Source: Nitrospirota bacterium (GTDB lineage: Bacteria > Nitrospirota > UBA9217). From it: a stretch of 64,000 bases of DNA. Of the stretch, positions 16,054-50,936 are shown piece by piece. Numbering within the stretch: position 1 is the stretch's first letter; the number at the start of each line of letters is the position of its first letter. The notes beneath the pieces were generated by a model. It did not search any database. It had not been told where the DNA came from and saw only the letters and a list, made by a program, of their open reading frames with translations. A program made the translations under genes and the position numbers. Location: positions 1,632,001 to 1,696,000 of the forward strand of contig CAVTRN010000001.1 in assembly GCA_963737155.1 (NCBI GenBank), given 5' to 3'.

Positions 16054-16077
16054 TTCAATCTCCTTATTTTAATTAAA

Positions 16078-18150: not shown

Positions 18151-18229
18151 GCCTGCCTCCTCGGAAAAACGATTGTCGCACTGATTCATATTGTGCATAC
18201 AAAATTCGTGCACTGTACAGTAGTATTAC

Positions 18230-19243: not shown

Positions 19244-19294
19244 GGGTAAGCCTCCTTGATTCATTGGTACGGTCGCATCAGATAACATCGCCCG

Positions 19295-21124
19295 TTACCC
19301 GCCGACTGGAAACGGTCCAAGATGTTCCGCAATCGGGCCGAGCGCAGCTGCCGGCAGGAAAAGAAGCGCTCCAATAATGAGAATTGTGGCAACCAAAAAC
19401 AGTCCAAACGTGGCGTCGTCGTCGCGCAGAGTCCCCAGACCAACCGGACTCGTTTTTTTCTCGCCCAGATATGCCGCCATTGCGATCGGCGCAATGATCG
19501 GAAGAAAGCGGCTGAAGAGCATGACCAGGCCCGTCGCGATATCAAAAGCTATCGCACTCGGAGCCGGACTCGTTGCGTTGTAGAAACCGTAAGTAACTCC
19601 CAGGCCGTCGAAAGCCGAACCGTTATTAGCGGAAGCTGACGAGAACTGGTACAGGATCTGCGAGAAACCGTGCGCACCGGGGTTGCTTACGGCGTCCACG
19701 CCCCAGTGCGTCACCGCGAAGAGGGCCACGGGCGCGAGAATCATAAACGGATGGACCAGCAAGGCAATGGCCGCCAGCTTGATTTCGCGGGCTTCAATCT
19801 TCTTGCCCAGATATTCCGGCGTCCGCCCCACCATCATGCCGGCGATGAAAATGCCGATGATTATATACAGCAGCATGTTTATCATCCCGACGCCTTTTCC
19901 TCCGAAAATGGAGTTGATCCACATTCCAACCATGGGCGACAAGGCGGCGATCGGGTTCAAACTGTCTTCCTCTGCGTTCACCGCGCCGCAGGTCACATCT
20001 GTCGTCAAAGCGTCGAACGTAGCGCCTGCCGAGGTCCCGAAACGCATTTCTTTGCCCTCGAGATTGCCCAGGTGCTGGTCTACCGGCAAACCCGCAACCG
20101 CGGCAAAGGTCACGGGCTTTTTCATATCCCACGATTTTTCACCGGGAATTTCGAGGGTTCGCGCAGCATGTGCCGTCAATCCCGGGTTCGGTTTCATGGT
20201 ATCATAATAGATTGACCAAACCACGGTGCCCGCCATGAGCGCCAACATGACAATAAATATGACATAGGCATGCCGCATTTTGCCGAGCATCCGTCCGTAC
20301 ATGATAACAAGCGCGAAGGGGAAGATCATCATTGCAAGCGTGTTGAAAAAGTTCGACAGTGCAGTCGGATTTTCGAAGGGGTGCGCTGAGTTCATTCCAT
20401 AAAATCCGCCGCCGTTGGTCCCGAGCATTTTAATGGACTCAAGTGCCGCCACGGGGCCAACCACGATCGTCTGCTGCTTCGCCTCTCCCTTGTCTGTTGT
20501 TCCCATGGCCGCGGGTTCCAGTGTCGAAACCTGGTGGAAGGTTTTGAAGGTCATCGGGCTGCCTTGCGATAGGAAAATGAGGGAGAAGACAAAGGCAAAC
20601 GGAACAAACATGTAGATCATAACCCGCCACATATCCAGGAAAAAGTTTCCGAGCGACTTATCACTGCGCAAGGCTCGTATGATCGCGGCCAGTGCGCACA
20701 AGCCGATGGCGGCCGATATATACATATTTGAGATGCAAAAGAAAATCTGACTGAAGTTCGACAGATGCTGGTCCCCGGAATAGTGCTGGAGGTTCGTGTT
20801 CGTCATGAACGACACCACGCTGTTAAAGATCGTGCTGGGGAACAGCATTGTCTTGCCGTCGGGGTTGAGCGGCATATATGGCTGGAGTGCCAGAACAAGA
20901 TAACCGAAGACGAAGAGGACTGTGTTGAAGAGAAGCAGGGAGCCGATATACTGCTTCCAGTTCTGAGGACCGCTGTCCAGGCGCTTTTCGAACCACCCCA
21001 TGACCGGTAGAGGCCGGTATTTCCCATCCATGATCCAGGCCAGGTAGCGGCTCAAGGGGAATGCAACAATAGTCGCTGTGGCGAGAAGCGTAAAGGGAAG
21101 CAGCCAGGTTTGAATAAACATCAT
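19295..21124 (-). CDS. kdpA: K+-transporting ATPase subunit A (copy 1)
   Basis: [51 protein letters not shown]. Confidence 0.96.
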   Translation of the reverse strand: MMFIQTWLLPFTLLATATIVAFPLSRYLAWIMDGKYRPLPVMGWFEKRLDSGPQNWKQYIGSLLLFNTVLFVFGYLVLALQPYMPLNPDGKTMLFPSTIFNSVVSFMTNTNLQHYSGDQHLSNFSQIFFCISNMYISAAIGLCALAAIIRALRSDKSLGNFFLDMWRVMIYMFVPFAFVFSLIFLSQGSPMTFKTFHQVSTLEPAAMGTTDKGEAKQQTIVVGPVAALESIKMLGTNGGGFYGMNSAHPFENPTALSNFFNTLAMMIFPFALVIMYGRMLGKMRHAYVIFIVMLALMAGTVVWSIYYDTMKPNPGLTAHAARTLEIPGEKSWDMKKPVTFAAVAGLPVDQHLGNLEGKEMRFGTSAGATFDALTTDVTCGAVNAEEDSLNPIAALSPMVGMWINSIFGGKGVGMINMLLYIIIGIFIAGMMVGRTPEYLGKKIEAREIKLAAIALLVHPFMILAPVALFAVTHWGVDAVSNPGAHGFSQILYQFSSASANNGSAFDGLGVTYGFYNATSPAPSAIAFDIATGLVMLFSRFLPIIAPIAMAAYLGEKKTSPVGLGTLRDDDATFGLFLVATILIIGALLFLPAAALGPIAEHLGPFPVGG

Positions 21125-21219
21125 CTTACCTCCTTGTTATTTTTGAATCAGTCGCCTCTCTTGGGTACCGCTAACAGAGAAAATCATGAAAGGAGGCGAC
21201 ACATCGAGCAGGAATCCAA

Positions 21220-21315
21220 TTAGATTTTTTCACAAGCTTTCACAAACAAACCACATACTCCCATCCCTGCAATGCCGAGGAAAAACATCGTTAACAGCCA
21301 GATGGCAACGTTCAT
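21220..21315 (-). CDS. Small kdp-associated membrane peptide MNVAIWLLTMFFLGIAGMGVCGLFVKACEKI
   Basis: Read by hand; AAGGAGG RBS; paralog at 28087-28182 also ends CEKI. Confidence 0.75.
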   Translation of the reverse strand: MNVAIWLLTMFFLGIAGMGVCGLFVKACEKI

Positions 21316-21352
21316 CGGGAATCCCTCCTTTGCGTTAAGATGCATTGTCCCT

Positions 21353-21445
21353 TCATGACAGGCTCTCCGGCCTAAGAAGCGCGATCATGAGATAAATAAA
21401 TAGCCCTGCGGAAACAATGCCGCCAATCCAGTAGAATAGTTCCAT
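21353..21445 (-). CDS. kdpF: KdpF (MELFYWIGGIVSAGLFIYLMIALLRPESLS)
   Basis: Read by hand; YL..ALLRPE signature; AAGGAGG RBS. Confidence 0.88.
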   Translation of the reverse strand: MELFYWIGGIVSAGLFIYLMIALLRPESLS

Positions 21446-21540: not shown

Positions 21541-21547
21541 GGATCGT

Positions 21548-21632
21548 CCTTCTTTGCATGGATAAATTATAAGCACAAACGGCGTTAAATTGTTGATAAT
21601 AATGGTGCAAAAAGAATTAAAATTTTATAAAG
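21548..21632 (-). promoter_or_regulatory. Conserved kdp-type promoter, copy 1
   Basis: ctttataaaattttaattctttttgcacc…ttaacgccgtttgtgcttataat…caaagaagg; homologous to three other sites. Confidence 0.7.
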
Positions 21633-22228
21633 ATTTACTATGGTTCTTTTGTCACGTACTCCATATATAATTATAAGAATATGCAACAAATAGTCGCCCA
21701 ATCCGGAATCAACCATCGCTATATTTACCGCCCTCGGGCCTCTTCCTAAACTTGATACTCTGGATAAGGAATGCCAGGCGGCCTCTGCACGCCGGATAAT
21801 CAAAATCTCTCAAAGATCAACTCCGCTTCGTGTTAGGATACTAGTCGAACAAAGCCTGGACGTCTGTGATGGATGCACAGTGGAGGTTTGTTCTCAAAAT
21901 AAAGCTTAAGCTAACTTGATAGAAATAATCAACTTAGGCATTTATGAAAGCCATCCTTCACAGGAGGAGCATGGGATTTAGACATGCGTCGCATGTCCAA
22001 CAGCGCTTTTACAAGTCTGTTAAAATTATGTCTGTCTCGTTGCCCCTTACTTGTTTGCAACGGCAGCTGTTAAATAGGATATGCAGAATACCGGTTGATA
22101 CTTGCGCCACTTCTCATCACTGACGATTAGCGACGCCATCTCGAACACGAGCTGCTGGGTTGTGGCGAGATTGCCCCCCGTGTTGCCTGCTTTGTCAATA
22201 TAGAAAAAGTGCATTATCGCCCTACTGC

Positions 22229-22294
22229 GCTTGACACAATCGTTCGCAGGGACTGCGGCAGTTTCGCATGATCCCGCGAAGCGTGATGTTATAG
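22229..22294 (-). repeat. attC-like site closing the DUF4062 cassette
   Basis: Minus strand CTATAAC(atca)CGCTTCGCGGGA…TCCCTGCGAACG(attgt)GTCAAGC; the gene's stop lies in R''. Confidence 0.6.
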
Positions 22295-23290
22295 CTTCTT
22301 TTTTATTTTCACACTTCGAAGTGCTAACATTTTATGTTTGCCCTTTAGGGTTAGAGCCCAAGATAAACCCGCCCCGAAACCGACAGTATTAAGTGACGTT
22401 ACTTGGATAAGACCAAGAGCAAGAAATTGCACTTTTATACTCTGAAGGATATCGATATCTAGTTTTGCCGCAAAGGGCTCTCCAAATCCCGTTGCTTTCA
22501 AAAGTACTAAAGCAATTTGAATTTGTAAGCTATCTTCATCATGCCACCGTAATAAATAAGGGGAAATTAATTTGAAGATGTCTTTCCAAGATATTTTTTC
22601 AAACCATTCTCGGGAAGACTGTCCAGCCTCCATTGAATAAGTTCCAGATATAATAGTTACCTCTTTAAATGCAATATTTTTCGTATCGATGTTGACTTCT
22701 GCAATGCTTTCCATCCTTGAAATTTGTGTTTGCAATTCGTGATTTTCTTTTCTCAAATTATTTATTTCTTCGAGCATTTCCGCGCTTCCTACCTTGCCCG
22801 CTCGAACCCAGCCTTTATTTGGATTATCTCTAATCAACTGAGTTAAGCTTCTGCTTACCACTGCTCCTAATTCATACGTATTGCTCCAGTGCTTATATAA
22901 ATTACTTCTCACAATTGACATAAACTCTTCCAGCTTCTGAACCTGATTCTCATCCTTATCATTTTTATCATCAGGTAAAGAATCGTGGTCATGCCGGATA
23001 AACCCAATGGCAGGTATCCCCTTTGATAGTGCATATTCATATTCTTTGCGAGCGTAACTTTTCTCATCCTGATCTTCGGATCCATAAAAACCACAAATTA
23101 TTACGACATAATAATCACATTTATCAATTAGGTCCTTTATGACAGTCCACTGATCCTCATTCGCCGCAGGATAGTATTCCATACCACATGGGACACAATC
23201 CAATTCGAGGAGCGCTTTCATAACCTCCAGGCGTTCATCAACGAGATTTTCAGATGTTGAGCTCACAAAAACCTGGTACCGCTTATCCAT
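22289..23290 (-). CDS. DUF4062 domain protein (probable integron cassette gene)
   Basis: KRYQVFVSST..L..ER, GMEY.PA, IDKCDYYVVII…YGS, KEYEYA; AT-rich. Confidence 0.85.
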   Translation of the reverse strand: MDKRYQVFVSSTSENLVDERLEVMKALLELDCVPCGMEYYPAANEDQWTVIKDLIDKCDYYVVIICGFYGSEDQDEKSYARKEYEYALSKGIPAIGFIRHDHDSLPDDKNDKDENQVQKLEEFMSIVRSNLYKHWSNTYELGAVVSRSLTQLIRDNPNKGWVRAGKVGSAEMLEEINNLRKENHELQTQISRMESIAEVNIDTKNIAFKEVTIISGTYSMEAGQSSREWFEKISWKDIFKLISPYLLRWHDEDSLQIQIALVLLKATGFGEPFAAKLDIDILQSIKVQFLALGLIQVTSLNTVGFGAGLSWALTLKGKHKMLALRSVKIKKKL

Positions 23291-23455
23291 TGTCTCTTTT
23301 CCCTATAACATCAATTTGGCGACAATAATTCATCATGTAGGTTTCAACTCCTAAACAGTTTCCTTCCTTGCACTCTTCTCGTGCGTAATTGCTGCAAGCC
23401 TGAAGCAGCAGCATAATGGAACGTCTTTTCGCATCCATTCCCCTTCTTCGCGCGG

Positions 23456-24907
23456 TCAGTCTCGTTCCTGCTCTTCATCATCTCTCTCGCCAAAAGACGG
23501 GCGTATTCCCAATTTAAGTATTTTTTTCTTGAGCGTGTTCCGGTTAATGCCAAGCAGTTTCGAAGCATGTACCTGGTTGCCCGAGGTCTTTGTGAGTACG
23601 AGCGAGAGAAGAATTTTCTCCACGCGTTGTGTTACCATAGAATAGATGTCGCTTGTTTCGAGTCCGCTCATACGGTCTACGAGATCGGCAAGTTTTATCT
23701 CAAGATAGTTTTCAAAGGATGATGAAGTGGCGTGGCCTCGTTTGACTATCTGAGGGGGGAGGGAGTCTAAAAATATTTTATCACTCTGCGAAAGGGTGAT
23801 TGCGCGCTGCACCGCGTTTTCCAGTTCGCGGACGTTCCCAGGCCAGTCGTATTTACAGAGGATATCAAGAGTTTCTGGAGTGAACATCTTGGATTTGGTG
23901 CCTGACTGGTATTTCTGTATAAAAAAATCGATAAGAGGAGCGATATCGTCTTTCCGCTTCCTGAGAGGCGGGATGTCGATCTGGATCACATTCAGACGGT
24001 AAAAAAGGTCCTGACGGAAACGTTTGTCCTGAATGGCCTTCTCCAGGTTCTGATGAGTGGCAGCAATCACGCGGGCATATGTTCTGATGGTGTTTGTGCC
24101 ACCCACACGTTCGAACTCGTATTCCTGGAGCACTCGTAAAAGCTTGCCCTGGAGCGACATGCTCAGGTCGCCGATCTCGTCCAGAAACAAAGTCCCGCCA
24201 GAAGCCGCTTCGAATTTCCCTATTTTTTTAGCTGCGGCTCCGGTAAACGCGCCCTTCTCATGCCCGAAGAGTTCGCTTTCAAGGAGTTCCGATGGAATCG
24301 CTGCAGAATTTACGGCGATAAAAGGTCTGCCAGCCCGAGTGCCGCCGTGGAAATGAATTGCCCGGGCAACGAGTTCCTTCCCGGTACCGCTCTCACCACG
24401 TATCAAGACGGTTGCATCGCTTTCCGCGACCCTTCCGATCGTCTTGTAAATCTCCTGCATGGCGGGCGTATTGCCGATCAGTCCGCCTTCGTTTTTATCC
24501 CGCACTTCGGCGCGAAGGACTTCGACCTCGAGCGAAAGCCTCCGTATGTCGAGGGCTTTCTGAATGAGAACATAGACTTCCTCGAGATCGAAAGGCTTCG
24601 TGATGTAATCAAAAGCCCCTCGGCGCATAGCTTCGATTGCGTTCTGCATGTTTGCTTGCGCGGTCATAATTATGACCGGGATCCTGGCCTGTCCGTTCTG
24701 GATTATTTCGAGTGCATCGAGCCCGTTCATACCCGGCATGCGAATGTCCATCATAACCAGGGAGATATCGCCTTTTTTGATCCTCTCGAGAGCCTCAACT
24801 GAACTCCCGGCGACCTCCGTCTCGATATCTTGTTTTTCAAGCGACTTCTTCAGAACCCAGCGAACACTTTCCTCATCATCGACAATAAGAACTTTCTCGT
24901 AACTCAT
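23456..24907 (-). CDS. Sigma-54-dependent response regulator (NtrC-like)
   Basis: REC domain (VDDE, MDIRMP), GESGTGKE, ELFGHEKGAFTGA, WPGNVRELEN, Fis HTH GINRNTL. Confidence 0.93.
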   Translation of the reverse strand: MSYEKVLIVDDEESVRWVLKKSLEKQDIETEVAGSSVEALERIKKGDISLVMMDIRMPGMNGLDALEIIQNGQARIPVIIMTAQANMQNAIEAMRRGAFDYITKPFDLEEVYVLIQKALDIRRLSLEVEVLRAEVRDKNEGGLIGNTPAMQEIYKTIGRVAESDATVLIRGESGTGKELVARAIHFHGGTRAGRPFIAVNSAAIPSELLESELFGHEKGAFTGAAAKKIGKFEAASGGTLFLDEIGDLSMSLQGKLLRVLQEYEFERVGGTNTIRTYARVIAATHQNLEKAIQDKRFRQDLFYRLNVIQIDIPPLRKRKDDIAPLIDFFIQKYQSGTKSKMFTPETLDILCKYDWPGNVRELENAVQRAITLSQSDKIFLDSLPPQIVKRGHATSSSFENYLEIKLADLVDRMSGLETSDIYSMVTQRVEKILLSLVLTKTSGNQVHASKLLGINRNTLKKKILKLGIRPSFGERDDEEQERD

Positions 24908-25063
24908 TGTTGTTCCTCATGATCAGAGAAGGAGCTTTAATCCTGTCTTCTTTGTTCCCGATGAACGTAATCTTTGAATCCAAAACGCGATGTTTCTTAG
25001 AAAATGGCGTCCTGAAACCAGCAGCACAATTCCAAGAACCGCATATTCCAAAGCAAAAAATAT

Positions 25064-25209
25064 TCATATCTGTCTTCTACAAATAATCAAGTTCTGGAGT
25101 ATCCCAAGTTTGTTGGCGGCCTTAGCTATGCTCCCATTACATTCTGTGAGGGCTTTGATAAGCTCATCCCTCACCATTTATCTTCCACTTTCTCTTTCAG
25201 TTTGACCAT
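25064..25209 (-). pseudogene. Frameshifted stand-alone Fis-type HTH gene
   Basis: MVKLKEKVEDK / MVRDELIKALTECNGSIAKAANKLGI read in two frames. Confidence 0.5.
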
Positions 25210-25316
25210 TTTTTTCTCTAAGGTTATGCATTAGTTGATTCGCCCGTATGCATACCTCGGCATCTTCCCTCTAAACCAGTGCTTTTCTATCGACTCTGCG
25301 GTCAAGAGAGACTGAT

Positions 25317-25634
25317 CTAAAGTGCTTCAATAAGAGGGAGGATACATATCCTACAATCTCCCTTTTGGTCTATCCTGACAATCTTACGGATTGTTGCAAC
25401 AACGTTGTCTACCAAGCCATCTGCAACGATAATCTCGACTTCCATTTTTGTCATAAAGTCTGAGATATATTCTGCTCCACGGTAAAACAATGTCTCCCCT
25501 TTCTTAAAGCCGTTACTTACACGTTGGCTAACCATTGTTTCCTCAACCATTATTTCATCGATTCCCATGTCCTGAAGTGCAGTTTTTACCTTTTCTAAAG
25601 TTAACGGCCTAACTATGGCTTTTATCAGTTTCAT
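25317..25634 (-). CDS. Divergent P-II family nitrogen regulatory protein
   Basis: MKLIKAIVRP..LEKVK.AL, YRGAEY T-loop, K.EVEIIV.D; B-loop degenerate (QKGDCRI). Confidence 0.82.
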   Translation of the reverse strand: MKLIKAIVRPLTLEKVKTALQDMGIDEIMVEETMVSQRVSNGFKKGETLFYRGAEYISDFMTKMEVEIIVADGLVDNVVATIRKIVRIDQKGDCRICILPLIEAL

Positions 25635-25728
25635 GATGCTCCTCCTTGCTTTCTTGATTTTCAAATATCCGCATTCGCTGTTCCGGACGTATAATAATTC
25701 CATTCCCTGTCCATGGCGGTAATAAACT

Positions 25729-26061
25729 TTACCGCGTCAGCGAAGCATTTCGTGTCAACTGTACGCGTTCGTTGAGCGTCCTATCATCTCTGCTCATGTA
25801 CGATATCTTGTCCTCATGCCTGTCGGCAAGCATCCATGCTCTTTTATAAAGATATTTCGGTTGTTTCAGTATTACCCTGAATTGCCCGGCCTCAAAATTC
25901 ACCGGCATGAAGAGTCCGGACTCTCGAGCAAGAATATTAGCCTGCACGAACGCCCATTCACTCCCTGTTGTAAATCCTTTGCTCTGGCCGATCGGAAAAC
26001 CAGCCGCAAAACCCATAAGCAATAAAGCGATCATCAATGCACCTCGAATTATTATTTTCAT
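25729..26061 (-). CDS. Hypothetical membrane-anchored or exported protein
   Basis: 110 aa, hydrophobic N-terminus, AAGGAAGG RBS. Confidence 0.55.
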   Translation of the reverse strand: MKIIIRGALMIALLLMGFAAGFPIGQSKGFTTGSEWAFVQANILARESGLFMPVNFEAGQFRVILKQPKYLYKRAWMLADRHEDKISYMSRDDRTLNERVQLTRNASLTR

Positions 26062-26144
26062 TGGCCTTCCTTACTATGAGTTTGTGGTTCGAAAACCACA
26101 TCGCTCTATCCCATAATTTTTCAGCTGTATCTTACGACCATCTT

Positions 26145-26426
26145 TCCTGAAGTTCGGGATTGCGCGTTGACGATCGTTTCACCCGCATGTTTTCCAAAAG
26201 GCGCCGCGGCGTACTTCTGCAATATTTCCTCGATCTTTTCGGCTTGCCGACGGATCACGTTTCAGGTTAGCCACCCATTTGCAGGCAACCCGCTCGGGCT
26301 AAAACTCGACGTTCTGTATAGTGATATGAGGATTAAACCCTGATGCGGACGCGGTGACCATTTCGTTGGGAAAAACCAACTAACCGCTAACAATGCGACA
26401 GCGATGCCAAAATATGTGACGTTCAT
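26145..26426 (-). pseudogene. Collapsed third kdp operon: leader peptide MNVTYF.. joined to a kdpC 3' remnant
   Basis: Minus strand aatcctcatatcact…aaatgggtggctaacctgaaacgtgatccg…gcgccttttgga matches the kdpC2 3' end (~33190-33420). Confidence 0.8.
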
Positions 26427-26434
26427 TGCCATCA

Positions 26435-26518
26435 CCTCCTTTGCGTTGTTTAAATATATGCACAATCGCCATAAAGATGCTGTTAAAAAGATTGTAAAAT
26501 AATAAAGATTTTATAAAG
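26435..26518 (-). promoter_or_regulatory. Conserved kdp-type promoter, copy 2
   Basis: ctttataaaatctttattattttaca…tttatggcgattgtgcatatattt…caaaggagg. Confidence 0.7.
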
Positions 26519-26919
26519 ATATTTTAATATATTTTTTGCCCTGCACTCCATATATAATAATATGAATATGCATAGTATGATCGCTCAATGAGGGACCATC
26601 CACCACCTCAACAGCCCGTGTGATTAAAATATCAAACGAATTTATTGCATATTTCTGATGGAATAATTCCTGTCTTTTGCTCTTTAACTGACATCGAGGT
26701 GGTCAATATCGCGATGCCTGGGAAATTTTAGTGTGGTGCCCACATGTTCATTGTCCGCAGGCTTGACGGTAGCAAATAATATGACAACCCGTGGCAGTCC
26801 GGAAATAGAAGCGGAGTAGGAAACTTCAATCGTATCTCTGGTGAAAGAAAATTGAAATCGGGCTATGGTCGTGTTGTCGGGGCTAGCCTATCTGGAGTAT
26901 ACGGTTAGCGATCAGACGG

Positions 26920-27438
26920 GTGGGAAACATCTATAGGGACGGTTTGGAGCCTGCATTGATCGGGCAAAATCAAACACCTGGAATCATCTTATCTGTCTCC
27001 GTCACGAGGATCTCATGTAACCAGGTCCCAAAGTCTGAAGAGGTTTCCCAAGACTCTTTTGGACAGCTCGCGCTCCGGGCCTTCAAAGTTTATATATTAG
27101 TGATAGCGTTGGTCCTCCTGGACCCGGGTTTCAAACCAATGATCGATATGTACATATCGAAAATTCCAGCACCGATCTTCTATTGGGGTAATATTACCTC
27201 GACGATTCTCGACAATGCCACGCTTGCCGCAGCGGAACTTGGACTCATTCTGACAGCTGCTCAAGTAACGGGTATCATGATGGGCGTCATCATCTCAGGC
27301 AGCATGCGGATCCCTGGAAATATTCCGAATATCATCGCAGCAAACAAGCTGCACATCTCGATCAGAGCATGGGTAAAGGTCGGCGTGCAGTTCGCCCTGG
27401 CGATAATGGCCGTCTATTTCAGCATACTCTACTTCTAA
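26920..27438 (+). pseudogene. DUF1646-like membrane protein fragment
   Basis: YWGNITSTILDNATLAAAE, GSMRIPGNIPNIIAA; only the C-terminal half is intact. Confidence 0.6.
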
Positions 27439-27494
27439 ATTTTCCTCATATCGTACACAATCGAAAAAGCTGTTCTTGTACAAGGTCCCTTGCC

Positions 27495-27612
27495 GTTATT
27501 GCGAGCTGAAGGCGAAGCAATCTCGTGGTATGTCTTGGGATACATTCCGCACACGCGTGTTTTGCAGTCGCCAGAATCCGGGATTGCTTCTTCGTTTCTT
27601 TCCCCATAGTGA
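27495..27612. repeat. REP/MITE-like palindromic element (degenerate)
   Basis: GTTATTGCGAG…GAAGCAATCTC … GGGATTGCTTC inverted arms. Confidence 0.45.
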
Positions 27613-27717
27613 TAGATAGCATGGGATGTTTGAGGCGACTGAACAGTGCACAACTTTTGAACTGAAAACTGCACATTATTTATTCAGATGCTTAAATCAG
27701 TGGCTATCTCCTCAATA

Positions 27718-27802
27718 ATTTAATTAAATTTTATTTCTTTTGCATTCAATCTTAGCAGCAATTTTACGCCGATTGCGCTTATATTTACGCACACAAAGGA
27801 GG
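27718..27802 (+). promoter_or_regulatory. Conserved kdp-type promoter, copy 3
   Basis: aaattttatttcttttgca…ttagcagcaattttacgccgattgcgcttatattt…caaaggagg. Confidence 0.7.
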
Positions 27803-27809
27803 CGATATC

Positions 27810-28013
27810 ATGAACGTTACCTATATGAATATTTTTGTCGCATTCTTCCTGCTCAGTTGGTTTTTTACCAGACACTTTTGGCAAGCGGTAACAGAAAGCT
27901 ATAGCACCAACTTACCGCGGAGACATCGTTCTCGCAGCCGGGCTGGAATTTTCTACATAAGAGATCGATGCGGCCCATTCAGAAACCAACAGCATTTATT
28001 GCAGGGAATCTGA
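27810..28013 (+). CDS. kdp leader small membrane protein (MNVTYMNIFVAFFLLSWFF…)
   Basis: Strong RBS; N-terminus paralogous to the ORF starting at 26426. Confidence 0.55.
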   Translation: MNVTYMNIFVAFFLLSWFFTRHFWQAVTESYSTNLPRRHRSRSRAGIFYIRDRCGPFRNQQHLLQGI

Positions 28014-28086
28014 CTGAAGTGTCTTTGCTTTTTCTCTCAAACAGATTGTTATTAGATGCTACTAAAAGTAGAGGAGGAACTCTTAA

Positions 28087-28182
28087 ATGAACCTTACATT
28101 CTGGCTGCCAGCGATGTTTATCCTGGGCATTGTATTGATGGCGCTTTGTTACCTGTTCATGGAAGTATGCGAGAAAATTTAA
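28087..28182 (+). CDS. Small kdp-associated peptide MNLTFWLPAMFILGIVLMALCYLFMEVCEKI
   Basis: Read by hand; GAGGAGG RBS; paralog of 21220-21315. Confidence 0.78.
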   Translation: MNLTFWLPAMFILGIVLMALCYLFMEVCEKI

Positions 28183-28200
28183 TCAATTGAGGTGATTTCA

Positions 28201-28284
28201 ATGATGATCTATCTGACGGTAGCTGTTGTGGCGTTCTTGTTCATTTACCTGTTTTTGGCGCTGATCCGGCCGGAATGGTTCTAA
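28201..28284 (+). CDS. kdpF: KdpF (MMIYLTVAVVAFLFIYLFLALIRPEWF)
   Basis: YL..ALIRPEWF signature directly upstream of kdpA. Confidence 0.9.
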   Translation: MMIYLTVAVVAFLFIYLFLALIRPEWF

Positions 28285-28333
28285 CAGGGACATCAAGGCA
28301 AGCTGAAATACCTAATTAAAAAGGAGTTAAACA

Positions 28334-30163
28334 ATGTTTATGCAAACCTGGTTTTTACCCATCTTGATTCTGGTAACGGCGAGCGTGGTCGCGTTTCCCT
28401 TAAGTCGATACCTGGCGTGGATCATGGACGGAAAATACCGGCCCTTGGCGGTCTTTGGATGGTTCGAAAAACGCCTTGATAGCGGCCCCCAGAACTGGAA
28501 GCAATACCTCGGCTCCATGCTCGTCTTCAATACGTTGCTGTTTGTCTTTGGTTTCCTTGTGCTGGTGCTTCAGCAATGGATGCCGCTTAATCCTGACGGC
28601 AAGGTGATGCTTGCCCCGAGTACGATCTTTCATAGCGTTGTATCGTTCATGACAAACACGGACCTCCAGCATTATTCGGGGGACCAGCACTTGTCGAACT
28701 TCAGCCAGATCTTCTTTGGCCTTGGCAATTTTTTTACGTCAGCAGCGATCGGTTTCTGCGCACTGACCGGCATCATCCGGGCTTTGCGCGGAGATTCCTC
28801 CCTAGGCAACTTCTTCGTGGACATGTGGAGGGTAATTGTCTACACGTTCGTGCCCGTTGCCGTTGTGATCGCCCTCTTTTTTCTGGCACAAGGCAGCCCG
28901 ATGACCTTCAAAAGCTCTTATCAGGTTTCGACACTCGAACCCGCGGCTATGGGGACAACGGACAAGGGCGAGGTTAAGAAGCAGACCATCGTAGTCGGAC
29001 CGGTGGCGGCCTTCGAGTCTATAAAGATGTTAGGGACAAACGGCGGCGGATTTTACGGCATGAACTCGGCTCATCCTTTCGAAAACCCCACTGCCGCGTC
29101 GAACTTTGTGAACACGCTGTCGATGATGCTCTTCCCGTTCGCGCTTGTCCTCATGTACGGCCGAATGCTCGGCCGAAAGCGGCACGGCGTAGCCCTTTTT
29201 TCGGTGATGCTGACGTTGATGACGGCAACAATTATCTGGGCGATCTACTTTGATACGTTAAAACCGAACCCAGGCTTGACCGCTCATCCAGTGGCCCGAA
29301 CGTATGAAGTTCCCAGCGCATCAGCGCCGGGCGGCAAGCAGACGGTGTCTCTGCCGGCAGTCGCCGGCTTGCCCGTAGACCAGCATCTGGGCAATCTCGA
29401 GGGCAAGGAGATGCGTTTTGGAAACTCTGCAGGCGCAACGTATGCGGCGATAACGACGGATGTGACTGCAGGCGCCGTGAACGCCGAGCACGATAGCCTT
29501 AATCCACTTGCCGCCTTGGCTCCCATGGTTGGGATGTGGCTGAACTGCATCTTCGGCGGCAAAGGCGTGGGGATGATCAACATGTTGATCTTCCTGATAG
29601 TCGGGATCTTTATAGCCGGACAGATGGTGGGCCGGACGCCGGAGTATCTCGGCAAGAAAATCGGAGCGCGCGAAATGAAGCTCGTCACCATCGCCCTGCT
29701 GATCCATCCGCTGATGATCCTGATGCCCAGCGGTCTCTTCGCCGCAATGGATTGGGGACTCAAGGCCGTCAGCAATCCCGGGGCACATGGTTTTACGCAA
29801 ATATTCTACCAGTTTTCCTCGGCTTCCGCAAATAACGGTTCCGCCTTCGACGGCTTAGGAGTGACGTACGGCTTTTTCAATAACCCGAACCCGGCGCCGA
29901 CCGCTGTCGCATGGGACATTGCTACCGGACTGGTAATCGTTATCAGCCGCTTTATTCCGATTATCGCGCCGTTCATAATGGCGGTCTCTTTGGGGGCGAA
30001 GAAGGCGAGCCCCTTTGGTTTAGGAACCATGCGGGATGACACCCCCACCTTCGCCCTCTACTTGCTCAGCGCGATTATCATCATCGGCGCATTGCTCTTC
30101 CTTCCGATCGCAGCGCTTGGACCATTTGCCGAGCATTTCGGGCCGATCCCCTTCGGCGGGTGA
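28334..30163 (+). CDS. kdpA: K+-transporting ATPase subunit A (copy 2)
   Basis: [34 protein letters not shown]. Confidence 0.96.
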
Positions 30164-30237
30164 GCAGGAATGAGTACGTTTATGAAAATCCTGGAACGCT
30201 TACAATAAATTGTGAGATTTTTAAAAAGGAGTTCGAT

Positions 30238-32394
30238 ATGAATAAAGCACCGAATACTACAGAAATAGAACAGCACGTCCGTGTGGCTCCGGAACAGCCG
30301 CACCACCGTATAAAAGCAAGAAAGCTGCTGGAAAAGGAAACGACGATGGCGGCGCTCAAACAGGCATTCGTCATGCTGCGGCCGGACATCCAATGGAACA
30401 ATCCCGTGATGTTCGTCGTGGAAATCGGCGCCATCCTGACGTTGCTGTTTATCGCGAGAGCAGCGCTCGGAGATTCCGGGAGCCAGGTGAGGATGGGTTA
30501 TTTTATCGCGGTCGACGCATGGCTTTTCCTGACCGTATTGTTCGCGAACTTTGCCACAGCCCTTGCCGAGGCCCGGGGTAAAGCACAGGCGGAATCGCTC
30601 CGGCAGACGCGTCATGACACGGTGGCTTTTCGTTTAAAAAACGGCAACAGCATCGAACAGGTTTCCTCGAACGTTTTGAAACCAGGCGATCGGGTCGTCG
30701 TGGAGGTGGGACAAACGATCCCCGGCGACGGAGAGATCATCGAAGGGGCCGCATCCATCAACGAGTCGGCGATTACGGGCGAGTCTGCCCCGGTCATTCG
30801 CGAGGCGGGCGGTGACCGGTCCGGTGTAACCGGAGGTACCGTCGTACTCTCCGACCGAATCGTCGTACGAATCATGAGCGGCGCCGGCGAATCATTCCTT
30901 GACCGGATGATCGCTCTGGTCGAGGGTGCCATCCGGCAGCGAACGCCGAATGAGATCGCCCTTACACTGGTGCTCTCGGCATTTACGCTGGCCTTCTTGA
31001 TCGTGGTGGTTCCTCTTTGGCCGATGGCCTGGAACGCCGAACAATACATGATGGGCTACCTGGGGATCACGGAACCTTTGCACAGCCTGGGCACCGATGT
31101 TCCGACCCTTATAGCGCTTTTGGTCTGCCTGATTCCCACTACCATCGGCGCATTGCTTGCCGCCATCGGGATCGCAGGCATGGACCGGGCTTTACAGGCA
31201 AACATAATCGCCAAGAGCGGCAAGGCCGTGGAGTTGGCGGGAGATATCGATGTCGTGTTGTTGGATAAGACTGGCACGATCACGATCGGGAACCGGCACG
31301 CAACGAAATTCCTGACTATAGGAAATTATTCGGCTGCCGAATTAGGCCGGTTGGCGGCCCTGGCATCCGCTGCCGACGACACGCCTGAAGGCAAAAGCAT
31401 CGTGACGCTGTTCGAGAAGCAGAGCAAAGCCTTGATCAGCGCGCCGCAGAACGCATTGTTCATCCCCTTTTCAGCCCAAACGCGCATGAGCGGCATCGAT
31501 CTTCCTGATGGACGGCGGATAAGAAAGGGTGCGCCAGACGCCATCATCAAATTCGTCGAGGAAAATCACGGAAGTGTTCCAGCTGATCTCGACGACGTGG
31601 TCAATTCCGTCGCGTCCAAGGGCGCGACGCCCCTCGTTGTCGCTGATGGCGGTCGCATCGCGGGCGTGATTGCCCTCGAGGATATTTTAAAGCCCCACAT
31701 GCAGGAACGATTCAAACGGCTGAGACAGATGGGTTTACGGACTGTCATGATCACCGGGGACAATCCCGTTACAGCTGCCGCCATTGCCGCACAGGCAGGA
31801 GTCGACGACTTCATTGCCCAGGCCACTCCGGAATCCAAGCTCGCTTACATCAGGAAGGAGCACGCTCAGGGGAAACTCGTGGCCATGATGGGAGACGGCA
31901 CGAACGATGCTCCGGCCCTGGCCCAGGCTGACGTAGCGCTGGCCATGAACGCAGGAACTCAGGCGGCCAAGGAAGCGGCCAACATGGTGGATCTGGACAG
32001 CGATCCCACAAAATTGATCGAAGTCGTGGAAATCGGAAAACAGTTATTGATGACACGCGGCTCCCTGACGACCTTTTCGATCGCGAATGATGTGGCGAAA
32101 TATTTTGCGATCATTCCGGCGCTTTTTGCCGGAACGTTACCGTGGGTGAAAGCGATCGACGTCATGCATCTGCATTCCCCGGTATCGGCCATTCTGTCGG
32201 CTGTCATCTTCAACGCGCTTATCATTCCGGTGCTCATCCCGATCGCGCTTAGGGGAGTCAAGTACCAGGCGCTCGGCGCCGATGCTTTGTTACAGAGGAA
32301 CCTGCTGATCTGGGGACTGGGAGGCATTATCATTCCCTTTATCGGCATCAAACTGATCGACATGGCCATGGTGACTATGTGCATGGTCAGCTAA
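30238..32394 (+). CDS. kdpB: K+-transporting ATPase subunit B (copy 2)
   Basis: [26 protein letters not shown]. Confidence 0.97.
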
Positions 32395-32423
32395 CGCTTG
32401 AAGGATTTAAGGAGGACATATAC

Positions 32424-33443
32424 ATGAAACAATATATTTCGAAGGGTAGCTTGCTGCTGTCAGTCTCAGTGATCATCAGCTGCATCCTCTATCCGATGGT
32501 ACTATGGGTGATAGGACAGACCATCTTTCCCTTTCAGGCCAACGGCAGCCTGCTGGAAGGTCCTGATGGAACCGTAGTGGGATCGAAGCTCGTTGCCCAG
32601 CCATTTACGAAGGACGAGTATTTTCAACCCCGCCCCTCGGCGGCGTCTTACGATGCGTCTGCCTCGGCCTCGTCGGCCCTCGCTGCCTCCAACTATGCGC
32701 TGCGCGACAGGGTCGCCCGCTCGCTCGGTCCGATCGTAAAATATAAAAGCGGACCCAAGGCCGGCCAGCTGGCAGCGCCCGATATCGAGCAGTGGTTCCA
32801 AAAGGACATTTTCCAGGGCAACCCGCACATCGTCTCTCAGTGGGCTGACCTGCACAACTCCCTTGCTCAGGCCTGGGTCGGTGCTGACCCGAAAAACGGT
32901 GCTTATGTGGACGATTGGGCAAAGGTGCACCCCTCTGTAGTAGCCCAGTTCATTAAGGACAATCCGGCAACACCTCAGCCAAAGGCAGCTGATCTGGCCG
33001 TCGTATTCTTCAAGGACTTCTCAGCGGAGCATCCCGGACAGTTCCCTTCAGCCGTGACCAAAACGGGGCCCGACGGCAAGCCACAGACGACGATAGAGCC
33101 GGTCAAGGAGGGTTCTGACATTCAGTCGATTTTCTTTGACATGTGGCGGCAGGACCATCCGGATGCGGACCTTCAGGATGTTCCCGGTGACCTCGTAACC
33201 GCATCCGGTTCCGGGCTTGACCCGCATATCACGCTTCAGAACGCAGAGTTTCAGCTCGATCGGGTAGCCACCAAATGGGCGGCTGACCTGAAACGTGATC
33301 CGTTGGCAGTCCGAAACGAGGTCGAGCAGATATTACAGAGGAATGCCTCGGCTCCGTTTGGAGGACTGGCGGGTGAGAAGTTTGTTAACGTGCTTGAAAT
33401 CAATCTCGAACTTCGCAAGCTCTACGGGGCGCCGTCGTCATAG
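32424..33443 (+). CDS. kdpC: K+-transporting ATPase subunit C (copy 2), long 339-aa form
   Basis: QANGSL, YFQPRPSA, TASGSGLDPHIT, VNVLEINLEL. Confidence 0.9.
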   Translation: MKQYISKGSLLLSVSVIISCILYPMVLWVIGQTIFPFQANGSLLEGPDGTVVGSKLVAQPFTKDEYFQPRPSAASYDASASASSALAASNYALRDRVARSLGPIVKYKSGPKAGQLAAPDIEQWFQKDIFQGNPHIVSQWADLHNSLAQAWVGADPKNGAYVDDWAKVHPSVVAQFIKDNPATPQPKAADLAVVFFKDFSAEHPGQFPSAVTKTGPDGKPQTTIEPVKEGSDIQSIFFDMWRQDHPDADLQDVPGDLVTASGSGLDPHITLQNAEFQLDRVATKWAADLKRDPLAVRNEVEQILQRNASAPFGGLAGEKFVNVLEINLELRKLYGAPSS

Positions 33444-33637
33444 CCTCACAACAGCAGAGATGATATGAATGAGGTGATCCGCATCCGCACCGGCTAGCGC
33501 GGCGAGATGATAATGTAACGATGGTAGTAAAATAAGGGGCGAGGGATGAGAGACGGGGGACTGATAAAATCGTTTGTAGTCCGACCGAAGAGATCGCCCT
33601 TGCTCCATTGTAATTCAATTAAAGAGGAGGAAGCAAC

Positions 33638-35053
33638 ATGGCGACACCCAACGATGTATTGAAGCTGGCAAAAGAAAACAACGCAATGATGGTGGACTTC
33701 AAATTCATGGACTACCCAGGGCTGTGGCAGCACTTCTCTGCGCCGCTTGCCGAACTTACCGAGGCCGTTTTTGAAGACGGGCTCGGGTTCGATGGCTCAA
33801 GTATCCGCGGTTGGCAGGCCATCCATGCGAGCGACATGCTCGTGGTCCCGGATGCGGAAACTGCGGTGATGGACCCTTTTACCAAGTACTCCACGCTCTC
33901 GCTTATCTGCAACATCGTAGACCCCATCACCAAGGAGCGCTATAGCCGCGACCCGCGCCATATCGCACAGAAGGCGGAAGCCTATCTGAAATCTACCGGC
34001 ATCGGTGACACAAGTTACATGGGTCCTGAACCTGAATTCTTCATCTTCGATGATGTCCGCTTCGACCAGAATTCCCACGAGGGCTACTATCACATTGACA
34101 GCGTGGAAGGTATCTGGAACAGTGGCCGCGTTGAAAATCCAAATCTGGGCTATAAGCCCCGCCATAAGGAGGGCTACTTCCCGGTGCCTCCGATCGATAG
34201 CCAGGAAGATATCCGCACCGAGATGGTTGAGGAAATGCAAAAGGTCGGGATCTATGTAGAAAAACAGCACCACGAAGTTGCAACCGCAGGCCAGGCCGAG
34301 ATCGACATGCGCTTCAGCCCACTGGTCAAAATGGCAGACCATCTCATGTATTTCAAGTACATTATTAAGAACGTGGCGAAGAGACACAACAAAACTGTGA
34401 CTTTCATGCCCAAACCGCTCTTCGGCGACAACGGCTCAGGCATGCACACCCACCAGTCCATCTGGAAGGGTGGCAAGCCCCTTTTCGCCGGCGACCAATA
34501 TGCTGGAATGTCCCAGCTTGCGCTCTATTATATCGGCGGCATTCTGAAGCACGCAAAAGTAATCGCGGCTTTCACGAACCCTACGACGAACTCCTACAAG
34601 CGCCTGACGCCAGGATTCGAAGCGCCGGTAAACCTGGCTTACTCCAGCCGGAACCGTTCCGCTTCCGTTCGCATCCCGATGTACAGCCCGAGCCCCAAAG
34701 CAAAACGCATCGAAGTAAGATTCCCCGATCCGTCGTGCAACCCCTATCTCGCCTTCGCAGCCATGCTCATGGCCGGTCTGGATGGTATCGAAAACAAGAT
34801 CGATCCAGGCCAGCCGCTCGACAAGGATATCTACGATATGGCGCCCGAAGAACTAGCCAATGTGCCGTCCATGCCCGGTTCGCTCGACGAGGCGCTCAAC
34901 AACCTCGAAGCGGATCACGCTTTCCTAATGAAGGGTGACGTGTTCACCAAGGACGCCATCGAGATGTGGCTAGAGTATAAGAGGACCAAAGAAGTGGATG
35001 CCCTCCGTCTCCGGCCCCATCCCTATGAATTTTTTCTGTACTACGACATCTAA
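33638..35053 (+). CDS. glnA: Type I glutamine synthetase
   Basis: [48 protein letters not shown]. Confidence 0.98.
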
Positions 35054-35076
35054 GAGCAGCCCTATACCGCACAAAC

Positions 35077-35114
35077 GAAACCGGAGCCTCTTCAAAGGGG
35101 TCCCGGTTTTTTTT
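35077..35114 (+). terminator. Intrinsic terminator after glnA
   Basis: GAAACCGGAGCCTCT…AGGGGTCCCGGTTTTTTTT. Confidence 0.75.
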
Positions 35115-35233
35115 ATGACGGCAATGCATATATCATCATCGCCGGAATATTTTACAAATAATTACTACAAGCTTCCCGCTGTCTTATTCCACCGAATATA
35201 GCTGATGTTACTTGCCATTTTGCTAAAAAGTGC

Positions 35234-35317
35234 CTTTATAAAATATTAATGTTTTGACTGCAATTTTAGCAGAATATTTATGCCACTTGTGTTTATAGTT
35301 AAACAATGCAAAGGAGG
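35234..35317 (+). promoter_or_regulatory. Conserved kdp-type promoter, copy 4
   Basis: ctttataaaatattaat…ttttagcagaatatttatgccacttgtgtttatagttaaacaatgcaaaggagg. Confidence 0.68.
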
Positions 35318-35443
35318 TTGTTCGCTGCAGCTCAGTGAGGAGCCATCAGATTTAAAGCAGGGACCCGGGCTGAAACATCTTTGCTTTTTCTCTCAAACAA
35401 ATTGTCATGAGCTGTTATTTGAAATTGCATTGAGGTGAACCAA

Positions 35444-37102
35444 ATGAGACACGTAAATGTACTGAAGCCTGCAAAAGAGAACAAACCTAGAATGGTGGAT
35501 TTTAAGCTCAAGGATTACCCCGGATTGCAGCGGCATTTCTCCGACCCCGTAGAAAAGTTGAACGAGGTTATCTTTGAAGAAGGCCTCGGGTTCGACGTCG
35601 CCAATATCCGTGGCTGGCAGGCCATCCACACGAGCGCCATGAAGGATGAGCAGTTTCGCACACCCCTGTTTGACGCAATGGTCAATCTTGCGGAAAGCCG
35701 CAAGGTTTCCTTTCATACCCCCGGTCATAAAAGCGGGAAAGGCATATCCACCCGGTTCCGCGAATTCGTGGGACCGCGCATTTTTACCATCGATTTGACG
35801 ACCCTTGACGAAGTAGACTCCTTGCAAAACCCCACCGGCGTAATCAAGGAAGCCCAGGAACTGGCCGCCAAAGCAGCAGGTGCCGACCGCTCTTACTTTC
35901 TCGTGAACGGAACGACTGTGGGTAACCATGCTATGGTGGCTTGCACGACCGGCCCCGGGGACAAGGTTCTGATAGCCAGAAACTGCCACCGTTCAGTGCT
36001 TACCGGTCTTATCATGAGCGGCGCCCAGCCAATCTTTTTCCAGCCAGCCTTTAGCCGGGACTTGAAGCTCACCCTGAACGTCACATTCGAGACCGCGAAG
36101 CAGGCCATTGACGCAAACCCGGACGCCCGCGCTCTTCTGATCACTAGCCCGAACTACTACGGTCTCTGCGCAGACATTGAAAAAATAATTCCCTACGCTC
36201 ACGAGAAGGGTCTTTTCGTGTGCGTGGACGAAGCGCATGGTCCTCATCTGAAGTTCAACCCCAAGCTCCCCAAATGCGCCCTTGATGCCGGCGCCGACCT
36301 CTGCGTCCAATCAACCCACAAGATCGTCGGCGGTATGACACAGGCGTCAATGCTGCATGCAAAAACAGGCAGAATCAATATCGATGACGTGACGAACACG
36401 TTAAAGCTCCTCCAGACAACGAGCCCCTCCTACATCCTGATGGCGTCTTTGGACCTTGCCCGGATGCAGATGGCGACAGAAGGTAAGACACTCCTCAACC
36501 GTGCCATTAAACTCGCCGAGGAAGCCCGGTCCAAAATCCAAAAAATCAACGGCATCAGCTGCTTTGGTAGAGAGCGGGTGAAAGCCGTCGGCATGGCTGA
36601 CATGGACGTGACGAAACTCATGATCACGGTTTCGGACTTGGGGCTCTCCGGCTACCACGTGTCCCATTTGTTGAATACGAGATTCGGCATCCAGGTCGAG
36701 ATGGCTGACCCTTTCCATGTGCTTGTTATTGTTTCGATCGGCGACCGGCAGGACGACCTCGACCGTCTCGTGGAAGCCCTCCGGCAAATATCGGCGGAGA
36801 CCGGGCCCCAGAGAGCGCGACTGCCGCTGGACAAGGTTCATCCGCCAATGCTTCAGAACCGCTTCGCCATGACCCCGCGTAAGGCTTTCTATTCAGATAG
36901 TGAGTGGGTGCACGTGAATGATTCCGCAGGCAGGGTTTCAACGGAGATCGTGACCGTATACCCCCCGGGCATCCCACTCCTCGTGCCCGGAGAAGAGATC
37001 TCTCAAAATGCCATCGATTACTTCCAGAACATGGCAGGCCTCGGCGCAACCATCGACGGGTTGACTGAAAATGACACGCTCATACGCGTGTCTAAAACCT
37101 AA
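35444..37102 (+). CDS. Arg/Lys/Orn decarboxylase (fold type I) with an in-frame GlnA-derived N-terminus
   Basis: SFHTPGHK, LVNGTT, RNCHRS, DEAHG, QSTHK, TTSPSY, YPPGIP; first ~65 aa resemble the GlnA N-terminus. Confidence 0.88.
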   Translation: MRHVNVLKPAKENKPRMVDFKLKDYPGLQRHFSDPVEKLNEVIFEEGLGFDVANIRGWQAIHTSAMKDEQFRTPLFDAMVNLAESRKVSFHTPGHKSGKGISTRFREFVGPRIFTIDLTTLDEVDSLQNPTGVIKEAQELAAKAAGADRSYFLVNGTTVGNHAMVACTTGPGDKVLIARNCHRSVLTGLIMSGAQPIFFQPAFSRDLKLTLNVTFETAKQAIDANPDARALLITSPNYYGLCADIEKIIPYAHEKGLFVCVDEAHGPHLKFNPKLPKCALDAGADLCVQSTHKIVGGMTQASMLHAKTGRINIDDVTNTLKLLQTTSPSYILMASLDLARMQMATEGKTLLNRAIKLAEEARSKIQKINGISCFGRERVKAVGMADMDVTKLMITVSDLGLSGYHVSHLLNTRFGIQVEMADPFHVLVIVSIGDRQDDLDRLVEALRQISAETGPQRARLPLDKVHPPMLQNRFAMTPRKAFYSDSEWVHVNDSAGRVSTEIVTVYPPGIPLLVPGEEISQNAIDYFQNMAGLGATIDGLTENDTLIRVSKT

Positions 37103-37130
37103 ATCCGGCAAACCATTGAGAAGGACCAAG

Positions 37131-37238
37131 GACACCCAACTATGTACTGAAACTGGCAAAAGAAATAAAACAGAGATGGAGGATTTTAAGTTCGTGGATT
37201 ACCCCGGTTTGTAGCAGCATTTCTCAGTCCACGCCGAA
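37131..37238 (+). pseudogene. Third, decayed glnA 5' fragment
   Basis: gacacccaactatgtactgaaactggcaaaagaa…gattaccccggtttgtagcagcatttctc aligns with glnA 33642-33750; contains a stop and an indel. Confidence 0.8.
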
Positions 37239-50309: not shown

Positions 50310-50354
50310 CTTTGCAGCATGCTCATGTTATAAGAATTTAACACTACATAAAAA

Positions 50355-50527: not shown

Positions 50528-50582
50528 GATGTTCTCGCACAGTCTTCGGCGTTAAGACGATGTGTGGTTAATTCTGTCTGTT

Positions 50583-50907: not shown

Positions 50908-50936
50908 CCAAAACCTCGACGTATAAGGAGAATAAA

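Follow-up and report, generated by a model that had tools for sequence, protein, structure and literature searches.

A kdp-type promoter module present in seven copies in a Nitrospirota genome and a possible, partly genome-specific extension of its KdpE regulon

Why would one promoter stand before two potassium-pump operons, a P-II/regulator gene cluster and an amino-acid decarboxylase gene within 64 kb of a single bacterial chromosome? The question is raised by a 64,000-nucleotide (nt) stretch of a Nitrospirota genome (assembly GCA_963737155.1, contig CAVTRN010000001.1, positions 1,632,001 to 1,696,000), hereafter the window, whose coordinates are counted from its first letter. A prediction made from the letters alone had taken four homologous upstream regions (c1 to c4) as the mark of a hidden regulon joining K+ uptake, nitrogen metabolism and polyamine production. 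We found that c1–c4 are paralogous copies of a kdp promoter with its leader, probably read by the response regulator KdpE. Extension of the KdpE regulon to glnA, to the genes for a P-II-like protein and a sigma-54 activator, and to the decarboxylase gene is plausible but unproven.

An alignment of the four regions spans ~100 nt; its columns average 73% identity and 50 of them are invariant. Leave-one-out profiles recovered the omitted copy at rank 4 in all four runs (expect value (E) of 1.9e-11, 4.5e-14, 1.1e-11 and 1.5e-12), which upholds the homology; the regions lie where they were originally placed, and Pfam agreed with the downstream genes as first read (kdp with a porin, a P-II/NtrC cluster, kdp with glnA, and a decarboxylase). 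Each copy carries the same series of elements (Table 1). The first hexamer, S1, is TTTATA in three of the four copies and TTTAAT in c3, and S2 (TTTATT, TTAATT or TTAATG; consensus TTWATK) starts 11 base pairs (bp) after it in every copy. A second pair of hexamers with 11-bp spacing follows, S3 (TTAGCA, TTAACA or TTATCA) beginning 31–33 bp past S1 and S4 (TTTACG, TTTATG or TTAACG) 11 bp past S3. The -10 hexamer (TATAAT, TATATT or TATAGT) is placed 17 bp past S4; S1 starts 59–61 nt 5' of this predicted -10, for a predicted S1–S2 position of about -73 to -56. After the -10 come an AAGGAGG ribosome-binding site (RBS) and the beginning of a short, hydrophobic leader open reading frame (ORF; MNVTY...). 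When relatives' copies were added to make 15, conservation reached 0.83–0.88 in the S1, S2 and S3 columns versus 0.61 in the flanking and inter-site columns.

A simple sigma-70 scan called no -35/-10 pair at any of the four copies, which fits dependence on an activator. Matches to the sigma-54 -24/-12 pattern (TGGCAC-N5-TTGCW, up to two mismatches) numbered 25 in the window versus 32.1 expected, with none at the copies' -10 regions, and a regular-expression scan of the four upstream regions for sigma-54 sites gave no match. At the Rfam gathering score, the window holds only a transfer-messenger RNA and two cobalamin riboswitches, none of them near the copies. The riboswitch aptamers follow one another on the plus strand at 50308-50542 (73 bits) and 50731-50920 (56 bits). 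We also considered and rejected a mobile-element origin of the module: it has no flanking terminal inverted repeats, and in relatives the motif stays at kdp loci.

Searched against the 4.84-Mb genome, an nhmmer profile of the four copies returned those copies (E about 1e-22) and two further sites (E 6e-8 and 0.012) before the next match at E 2.3. The 15-copy profile found exactly seven sites at E<1, three of them outside the window: c5, which precedes another P-II-like gene; c0, the promoter of the canonical kdpFABC operon; and a site upstream of kdpD. Behind c0 lie a 26-amino acid (aa) leader ORF, KdpF, KdpA, KdpB, KdpC (196 aa), a ~139-aa gene, KdpD and KdpE, and directly upstream of it, on the same strand, is the glnB-glnA pair of the canonical locus (contig 1, 1617410-1619256; 17410-19256 in locus L006). 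A 21-bp weight matrix of S1–S2 ranked its six training sites on top and gave no credible extra regulon members, as the runners-up lacked the rest of the module or lay inside or at the start of long open frames.

Sixty-one genomes of the family (Nitrospirota), this one included, were then searched with a covariance model of the module that used sequence only. The model matched in 40 of them, with seven copies here, the highest number of all, four in the sister genome G047 (the fourth being its kdpD promoter) and one to three, usually one or two, in the others. Outside this genome there were 61 matches: 23 at the kdpFABC promoter position (2–6 kb upstream of kdpC on the same strand), 12 at the kdpD promoter position (about 0.4–1.3 kb beyond the kdpC start), 23 on contigs without a kdpC match and 3 elsewhere. 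The next downstream gene was kdpA or kdpD in 28 of the 30 best family loci, the two exceptions being the c2/c3 pair of G047 and a contig end; in relatives, some 100 nt separate the motif from the kdpD start. Immediately 5' of the module, 11 of these 30 loci carry glnA, as glnB-glnA on the same strand. Because the module in relatives is almost confined to kdpA and kdpD promoters, we read it as the kdp promoter of this family. Judged by these matches, the usual state is one copy ahead of the pump genes and another ahead of the sensor genes, as would be expected if KdpDE regulates its own synthesis. Taken together, the seven sites of this genome and the 61 of its relatives yield a precise operator model.

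The form of the site points to KdpE. The Escherichia coli operator, TTTATA-N5-TTTACA, has the consensus TTTA(T/C)A with the first two T invariant and a footprint of -72 to -50 (PMC3264566, in excerpt). S1–S2 of the window copies likewise consists of two AT-rich 6-bp direct repeats with a 5-bp spacer, and the suggestion that the T-rich repeats at ~11 bp are KdpE-like agrees with the half-sites and spacing in the same excerpt. Copies c1 and c3 and the canonical promoter stand before kdpF/kdpA; c2, c4 and c5 do not, and have kdp relics behind them or none. As originally noted, the window contains no kdpDE; kdpD-kdpE end 21–24 kb to the left of its start. KdpD (897 aa) has KdpD, Usp, GAF, HisKA and HATPase domains. 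KdpE scores 258 bits against E. coli KdpE (4kny), compared with 157 bits for the next family, and its recognition helix retains R193 and R200. The KdpD/KdpE pair is single in the genome: the next response regulator is 36% identical to KdpE, and a second KdpD-like match is a 272-aa sensor fragment without a kinase. The assignment of the promoter to KdpE is thus well supported by sequence and comparative evidence; binding by KdpE, induction under K+ limitation and activity of c2, c4 and c5 are what we infer from it.

On this model, phospho-KdpE from the single KdpD/KdpE pair would bind the S1–S2 direct repeat as a dimer. The second in-phase pair, S3–S4 (TTAGCA-N5-TTTAYG), lies over the missing -35 and would possibly be bound by KdpE as well. 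Once bound, KdpE would bring RNA polymerase to a promoter with a good -10 and no -35, and transcription would begin a few bases 5' of the leader-ORF ribosome site. Copies c1 and c3 would then drive the two variant kdp operons of the window, with the porin gene and with glnA, respectively.

Several known systems resemble this arrangement in part. The E. coli kdpFABC promoter also carries two AT-rich 6-bp direct repeats of consensus TTTA(T/C)A with a 5-bp spacer, roughly 50–72 nt upstream of a transcription start that here is predicted (PMC3264566, in excerpt). In both cases the operator precedes kdpF/kdpA and the KdpD–KdpE pair is encoded after kdpC. The genome studied here differs in several respects: it has seven copies, of which three precede genes other than kdp; another in-phase pair of hexamers covers the -35 position; and a leader ORF begins right after the promoter. 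Its relatives also have a separate copy before kdpD. The Clostridium acetobutylicum kdp operon reportedly carries additional small ORFs ahead of kdpA, with one gene placed between kdpC and kdpD, a layout shared by the canonical locus here with its 26-aa leader ORF, KdpF and ~139-aa gene before kdpD. We know of no promoter multiplication in that operon, and a limited literature search found nothing relevant on kdpX, kdpZ or kdpY. In PhoB-dependent promoters, 11-bp-phased direct repeats (the pho box) lie by a good -10 and replace the -35, and S3–S4 sits where a pho box would. The KdpDE regulons of pathogens such as Staphylococcus aureus extend beyond kdpFABC; here, the extra candidate targets are glnA, the P-II-like genes, the sigma-54 activator and the decarboxylase, and they would have been gained by copying of the whole module rather than through stray sites. 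As to the half-site itself, that of PhoB is TGTCA(T/C) (PMC3264566, in excerpt), whereas the one found here is KdpE-like. Excerpts of PMC5401905 give a T-rich Clostridium KdpE site resembling that of E. coli and also list the S. aureus site.

How did a kdp promoter come to precede genes that are not kdp? The DNA behind c2 and c4 provides an indication. Behind c2, a stub of the leader gene X1 (ATG at 26426, running to 26262) is fused to a frameshifted relic of the kdpC 3' end (26121-26379), of which 26234-26377 is 76% alike to 33176-33319 in kdpC2, the kdpC of variant operon 2. Behind c4, a 68-nt remnant is 79% alike to the operon-2 leader (27994-28061), and a copy of the glnA 5' end (35446-35641) is 72% identical in nucleotides to 33643-33838. 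These remains of kdpC, leader and glnA lead us to conclude that c2 and c4 arose by duplication and deletion; in three relatives (G045, G042 and G026), comparable deletions have joined the module to kdpD. The simplest history would be that kdp operons were duplicated and redundant pump genes were then lost by internal deletion in c2, c4 and c5, fusing promoter and leader stub to formerly distal genes. In c2 the stub would thereby have been joined to a 110-aa ORF, the P-II-like gene and the sigma-54 activator gene, in c5 to a second P-II-like gene and in c4 to the glnA 5' end, now fused to a decarboxylase of the arginine/lysine/ornithine type.

The idea of a hidden regulon has to be divided. A shared module is present at all four loci, as proposed, but it does not mark an ancient designed unit, since c2 and c4 are kdp-operon stubs with relics. 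The novelty claimed for the combination stands to the extent that a limited literature search found no such set of targets. It is possible, if doubtful, that KdpD/KdpE has been rewired by module copying such that one signal co-induces three Kdp pumps, a porin, glutamine synthetase, a relay of P-II and an orphan sigma-54 activator, and a polyamine decarboxylase; such a response would replace scarce K+ with organic cations and handle the nitrogen cost. The c4 and c5 parts of any wider regulon appear, from the genomes compared, to be confined to this one genome, and the polyamine link proposed as a shared part of the regulon fails in the sister genome, which lacks it.

Several observations weigh against a module read by KdpE or against its wider role, and they bear on two alternatives. 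It is very improbable, in our view, that the module is read by another regulator, for example an OmpR/PhoB-family protein sensing nitrogen or osmolarity, or that its T-rich phased tracts only enhance a constitutive promoter, as an UP-element or through DNA bending. The genome does encode six further OmpR-family regulators, the genes behind the modules include glnA, the P-II-like genes and the sigma-54 activator, and the glnB-glnA pair that adjoins the module on its upstream side in 11 of the 30 best loci of the family would also suit a nitrogen regulator. In addition, KdpE residue T215, required for binding in E. coli, is N here. Against such a regulator, the half-site sequence and spacing equal those of the KdpE operator, relatives' modules are found almost only at kdpA and kdpD promoters, as for an autoregulated KdpDE, the remaining regulators are at most 36% identical to KdpE, and the conservation concerns particular hexamers beyond mere A/T richness. 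The reading by KdpE must also accommodate that module matches are weakest at the canonical promoter and the kdpD upstream region; that S3–S4 may be a second KdpE site on the strength of its sequence pattern alone; and that the leader ORF is dead in c1 (ATG to ATA) and c4 (no leader ORF remaining) and an aberrant run-on in c2 and c3.

The second alternative grants KdpE the canonical promoter, c1 and c3 as its real targets and takes c2, c4 and c5 as silent or non-adaptive by-products of duplication, deletion and insertion sequence (IS) activity, with no selected K+/nitrogen/polyamine regulon. We consider this unlikely. In its favour, relics can be recognised at c2 and c4, the c4 and c5 units have IS transposases at their flanks, and a normal decarboxylase and a normal glnB-glnA pair exist elsewhere in the genome. 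In G047, the fused decarboxylase gene retains a ~75-nt proximal leader remnant with no promoter module upstream, and a search of 60 relatives did not find c5. Compared with G047, moreover, the promoter core is no better conserved than its flanks (83% versus 90–94% for the adjoining relic DNA), with no sign of selection; footprinting by this comparison was uninformative because the two genomes are too close (82–94% identity throughout). Yet c2, c4 and c5 each retain the five promoter elements in intact form despite divergence at roughly a quarter of positions. The downstream ORFs are intact and have good ribosome sites, including those for the activator with its GAFTGA motif and the decarboxylase fusion, which is 91% identical in G047, and the whole c2 unit is retained there at 91–92% protein identity. 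Relic origin by itself does not imply silence.

If the stubs are active, the locus would be a clear natural case of regulon growth by duplication of a complete activator-dependent promoter module, in which loss of the original cargo leaves distal genes under the old signal. An uncultured lineage of soil and peat would then couple K+ starvation to the synthesis of glutamine and polyamines and to P-II/sigma-54 signalling. If they are silent, the locus shows no more than genes decaying in the ordinary way near a promoter of well-known type.

Table 1 Promoter modules and associated features in the window, with the three module sites found elsewhere in the genome
Feature	Position	Strand	Basis or remark
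c1, kdp promoter module	21547-21631	-	alignment, profile search
c1 elements	S1 21626-21631, S2 21615-21620, S3 21594-21599, S4 21583-21588, -10 TATAAT 21566-21571	-	
c1 weakened RBS	21547-21554	-	sequence AAGAAGGA
c2, kdp promoter module	26435-26517	-	alignment, profile search; also present in G047
c2 elements	S1 26512-26517, S2 26501-26506, S3 26481-26486, S4 26470-26475, -10 TATATT 26453-26458, RBS 26435-26441	-	
c3, kdp promoter module	27719-27802	+	alignment, profile search
c3 elements	S1 27719-27724, S2 27730-27735, S3 27752-27757, S4 27763-27768, -10 TATATT 27780-27785, RBS 27796-27802	+	
c4, kdp promoter module	35235-35317	+	alignment, profile search
c4 elements	S1 35235-35240, S2 35246-35251, S3 35266-35271, S4 35277-35282, -10 TATAGT 35294-35299, RBS 35311-35317	+	
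Variant kdp operon 1 including porin	14863-21445	-	order kdpA-kdpC-kdpB
Operon 1 small genes	KdpF 21353-21445; 31-aa peptide X2 21220-21315	-	
Operon 1 pump genes	kdpA 19295-21124; long kdpC 18230-19288; kdpB 16078-18213	-	Pfam
BBP2 porin after operon 1	14863-16053	-	Pfam
Variant kdp operon 2 including glnA and terminator	27810-35113	+	order A-B-C
Operon 2 leader genes	ORF X1 27810-28013; X2 28087-28182; KdpF 28201-28284	+	
Operon 2 pump genes	kdpA 28334-30163; kdpB 30160-32394; long kdpC (kdpC2) 32379-33443	+	Pfam
Operon 2 glnA	33638-35053	+	terminator-like hairpin and T-run about 35075-35113
c2 leader: X1 stub and kdpC relic	26121-26426	-	alignment to kdpC2
Genes behind c2	22289-26061	-	
110-aa ORF	25729-26061	-	no family
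Divergent P-II	25317-25703	-	
Sigma-54 activator with receiver domain (NtrC type)	23456-24907	-	
DUF4062 protein	22289-23290	-	
Truncated DUF1646 gene	26920-27438	+	between divergent c2 and c3; C-terminal 150 of 347 profile positions
Region behind c4	35350-37238	+	Pfam, alignments
Leader remnant behind c4	35350-35417 (68 nt)	+	79% alike to operon-2 leader 27994-28061
Orn/Lys/Arg decarboxylase ORF	ATG 35444 to 37102	+	Pfam
Further dead glnA 5' fragment	37131-37238	+	sequence alignment
IS transposase behind c4 unit	37525-38940		
c0, canonical kdpFABC promoter	contig 1, 1616503-1616600	-	15-copy profile, E 3.7e-11
Seventh and weakest site	about 100 nt before kdpD		15-copy profile, E 0.21
c5	contig 2, 118440-118529		precedes 105-aa divergent P-II gene, then Mutator-type transposase

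The operons behind c1 and c3 encode a variant of the Kdp pump. KdpA reached equivalog scores of 504.5 and 500.9 (cut-off 387.7) and KdpB 1080.6 and 978.4 (cut-off 527.9); KdpC scored 155.9 and 164.1, below its cut-off of 178, because of a ~150-aa insertion. The two KdpA proteins are 76% identical to each other and 37–38% identical to canonical KdpA. Their filter loops (NTNLQ, TNGGG, TCGAV and NNGSA) are conserved relative to those of E. coli (NTNWQ, TNGGG, SCGAV and NNGSA), which is why we read the variant as a K+ pump. Older reports by Buurman from 1989 and 1991 are said to describe NH4+ carriage by Kdp. We considered an ammonium pump here and found it unlikely, given the conservation of all four filter loops and, within them, of the glycine corresponding to E. 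coli position 232. Wild-type E. coli Kdp has little NH4+ activity and its G232D mutant transports NH4+ (PMC12629597, in excerpt).

The window KdpC proteins are 352–354 aa long with a highly conserved insertion, which is predicted as a helical bundle plus hairpin (predicted local distance difference test score mostly 80–94). It had no Pfam match and no usable Atlas match, and a Foldseek search against PDB matched KdpC chains only. The long form occurs at 66–79% KdpC identity in Nitrospirota, Deltaproteobacteria-type lineages, Acidobacteriota, Verrucomicrobiota, Binataceae and Paraburkholderia, yet within this genome it shares only 38–39% identity with the canonical KdpC. This contrast suggests horizontal spread of the variant kdp subtype across soil and peat genomes. 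Ahead of KdpF/KdpA, 66 of 78 variant loci (L025-L102) encode a conserved 31-aa peptide (MNLxIWLPAMF...ACEKI). Gene order is A-C-B in operon 1 and its orthologs in G047, G052, G002 and G037, A-B-C in operon 2 and most other loci, and B-C-A in a few. The limited literature search found nothing relevant on a second or variant kdp operon or on this pump subtype.

Upstream of variant kdpA in other phyla, S1–S2-like boxes are only suggestive: the best upstream site ranked 1–2 within its locus in 8 of 19 loci that have KdpD/E nearby versus 2 of 11 others, with low scores. A sigma-54 pattern scan upstream of variant kdpA gave no match in 16 NtrC-linked and 15 KdpE-linked loci. A gene for a BBP2 (OmpL-like) beta-barrel porin follows variant kdp in 14 of the 78 loci, this one included (others include L032, L034 and L057), and the porin may be an outer-membrane partner of the pump. 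The glnA gene of operon 2 with its terminator (33623-35114) is a 96.5% nucleotide copy of the canonical-locus glnA, the likeness being confined to gene and terminator; at the corresponding place after kdpC2 in G047, glnA is 70% identical.

The regulator gene behind c2 is intact, with its receiver aspartate region, GAFTGA motif and HTH_8 domain, and the genome has rpoN. Its product is 92% identical to its ortholog in G047 (L025). Similar regulators (34–46% identical) stand beside variant Kdp in 22 of 77 other loci fetched from other phyla, and in the Deltaproteobacteria-type loci inspected they are preceded by a ~352-aa cytoplasmic histidine kinase. Since NtrC-type regulators accompany variant Kdp in other phyla, the protein is better read, on this comparative evidence, as a regulator travelling with the variant pump than as the nitrogen regulator NtrC of the original prediction. 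The P-II-like proteins group in a small clade that has diverged from canonical GlnB (about 50% identity) and has an altered T-loop; the one behind c5 is 72% identical to the one behind c2. DUF1646, a putative cation transporter family represented by the truncated gene between c2 and c3, also occurs near variant kdp/NtrC clusters in L043 and L060.

In the decarboxylase ORF behind c4, the first ~67 residues are a copy of the GlnA N terminus (65–66% identical in amino acids), part of its beta-grasp domain. Only one of the 120 best homologs listed is full length, the 552-aa protein of G047 (contig C2, 190929-192587); the other 119 cover 73–88% of the query, and 117 of them are 458–507 aa long, most 493–494 aa. 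An internal ATG at 35639 aligns with the start of normal 494-aa homologs and could serve as an alternative start. The separate, normal decarboxylase of this genome is 89% identical (contig 1, 930116-931570). IS transposases (DDE_Tnp_1 with DUF772, ISL3 and Mutator) flank the c4 and c5 units (window 37525-38940 and 41323-42588; L007 7541-8809), which fits IS-linked rearrangement. Just past the porin end of operon 1, the window also encodes a pair of an Xre-like antitoxin and a RES-domain toxin (13213-14180).

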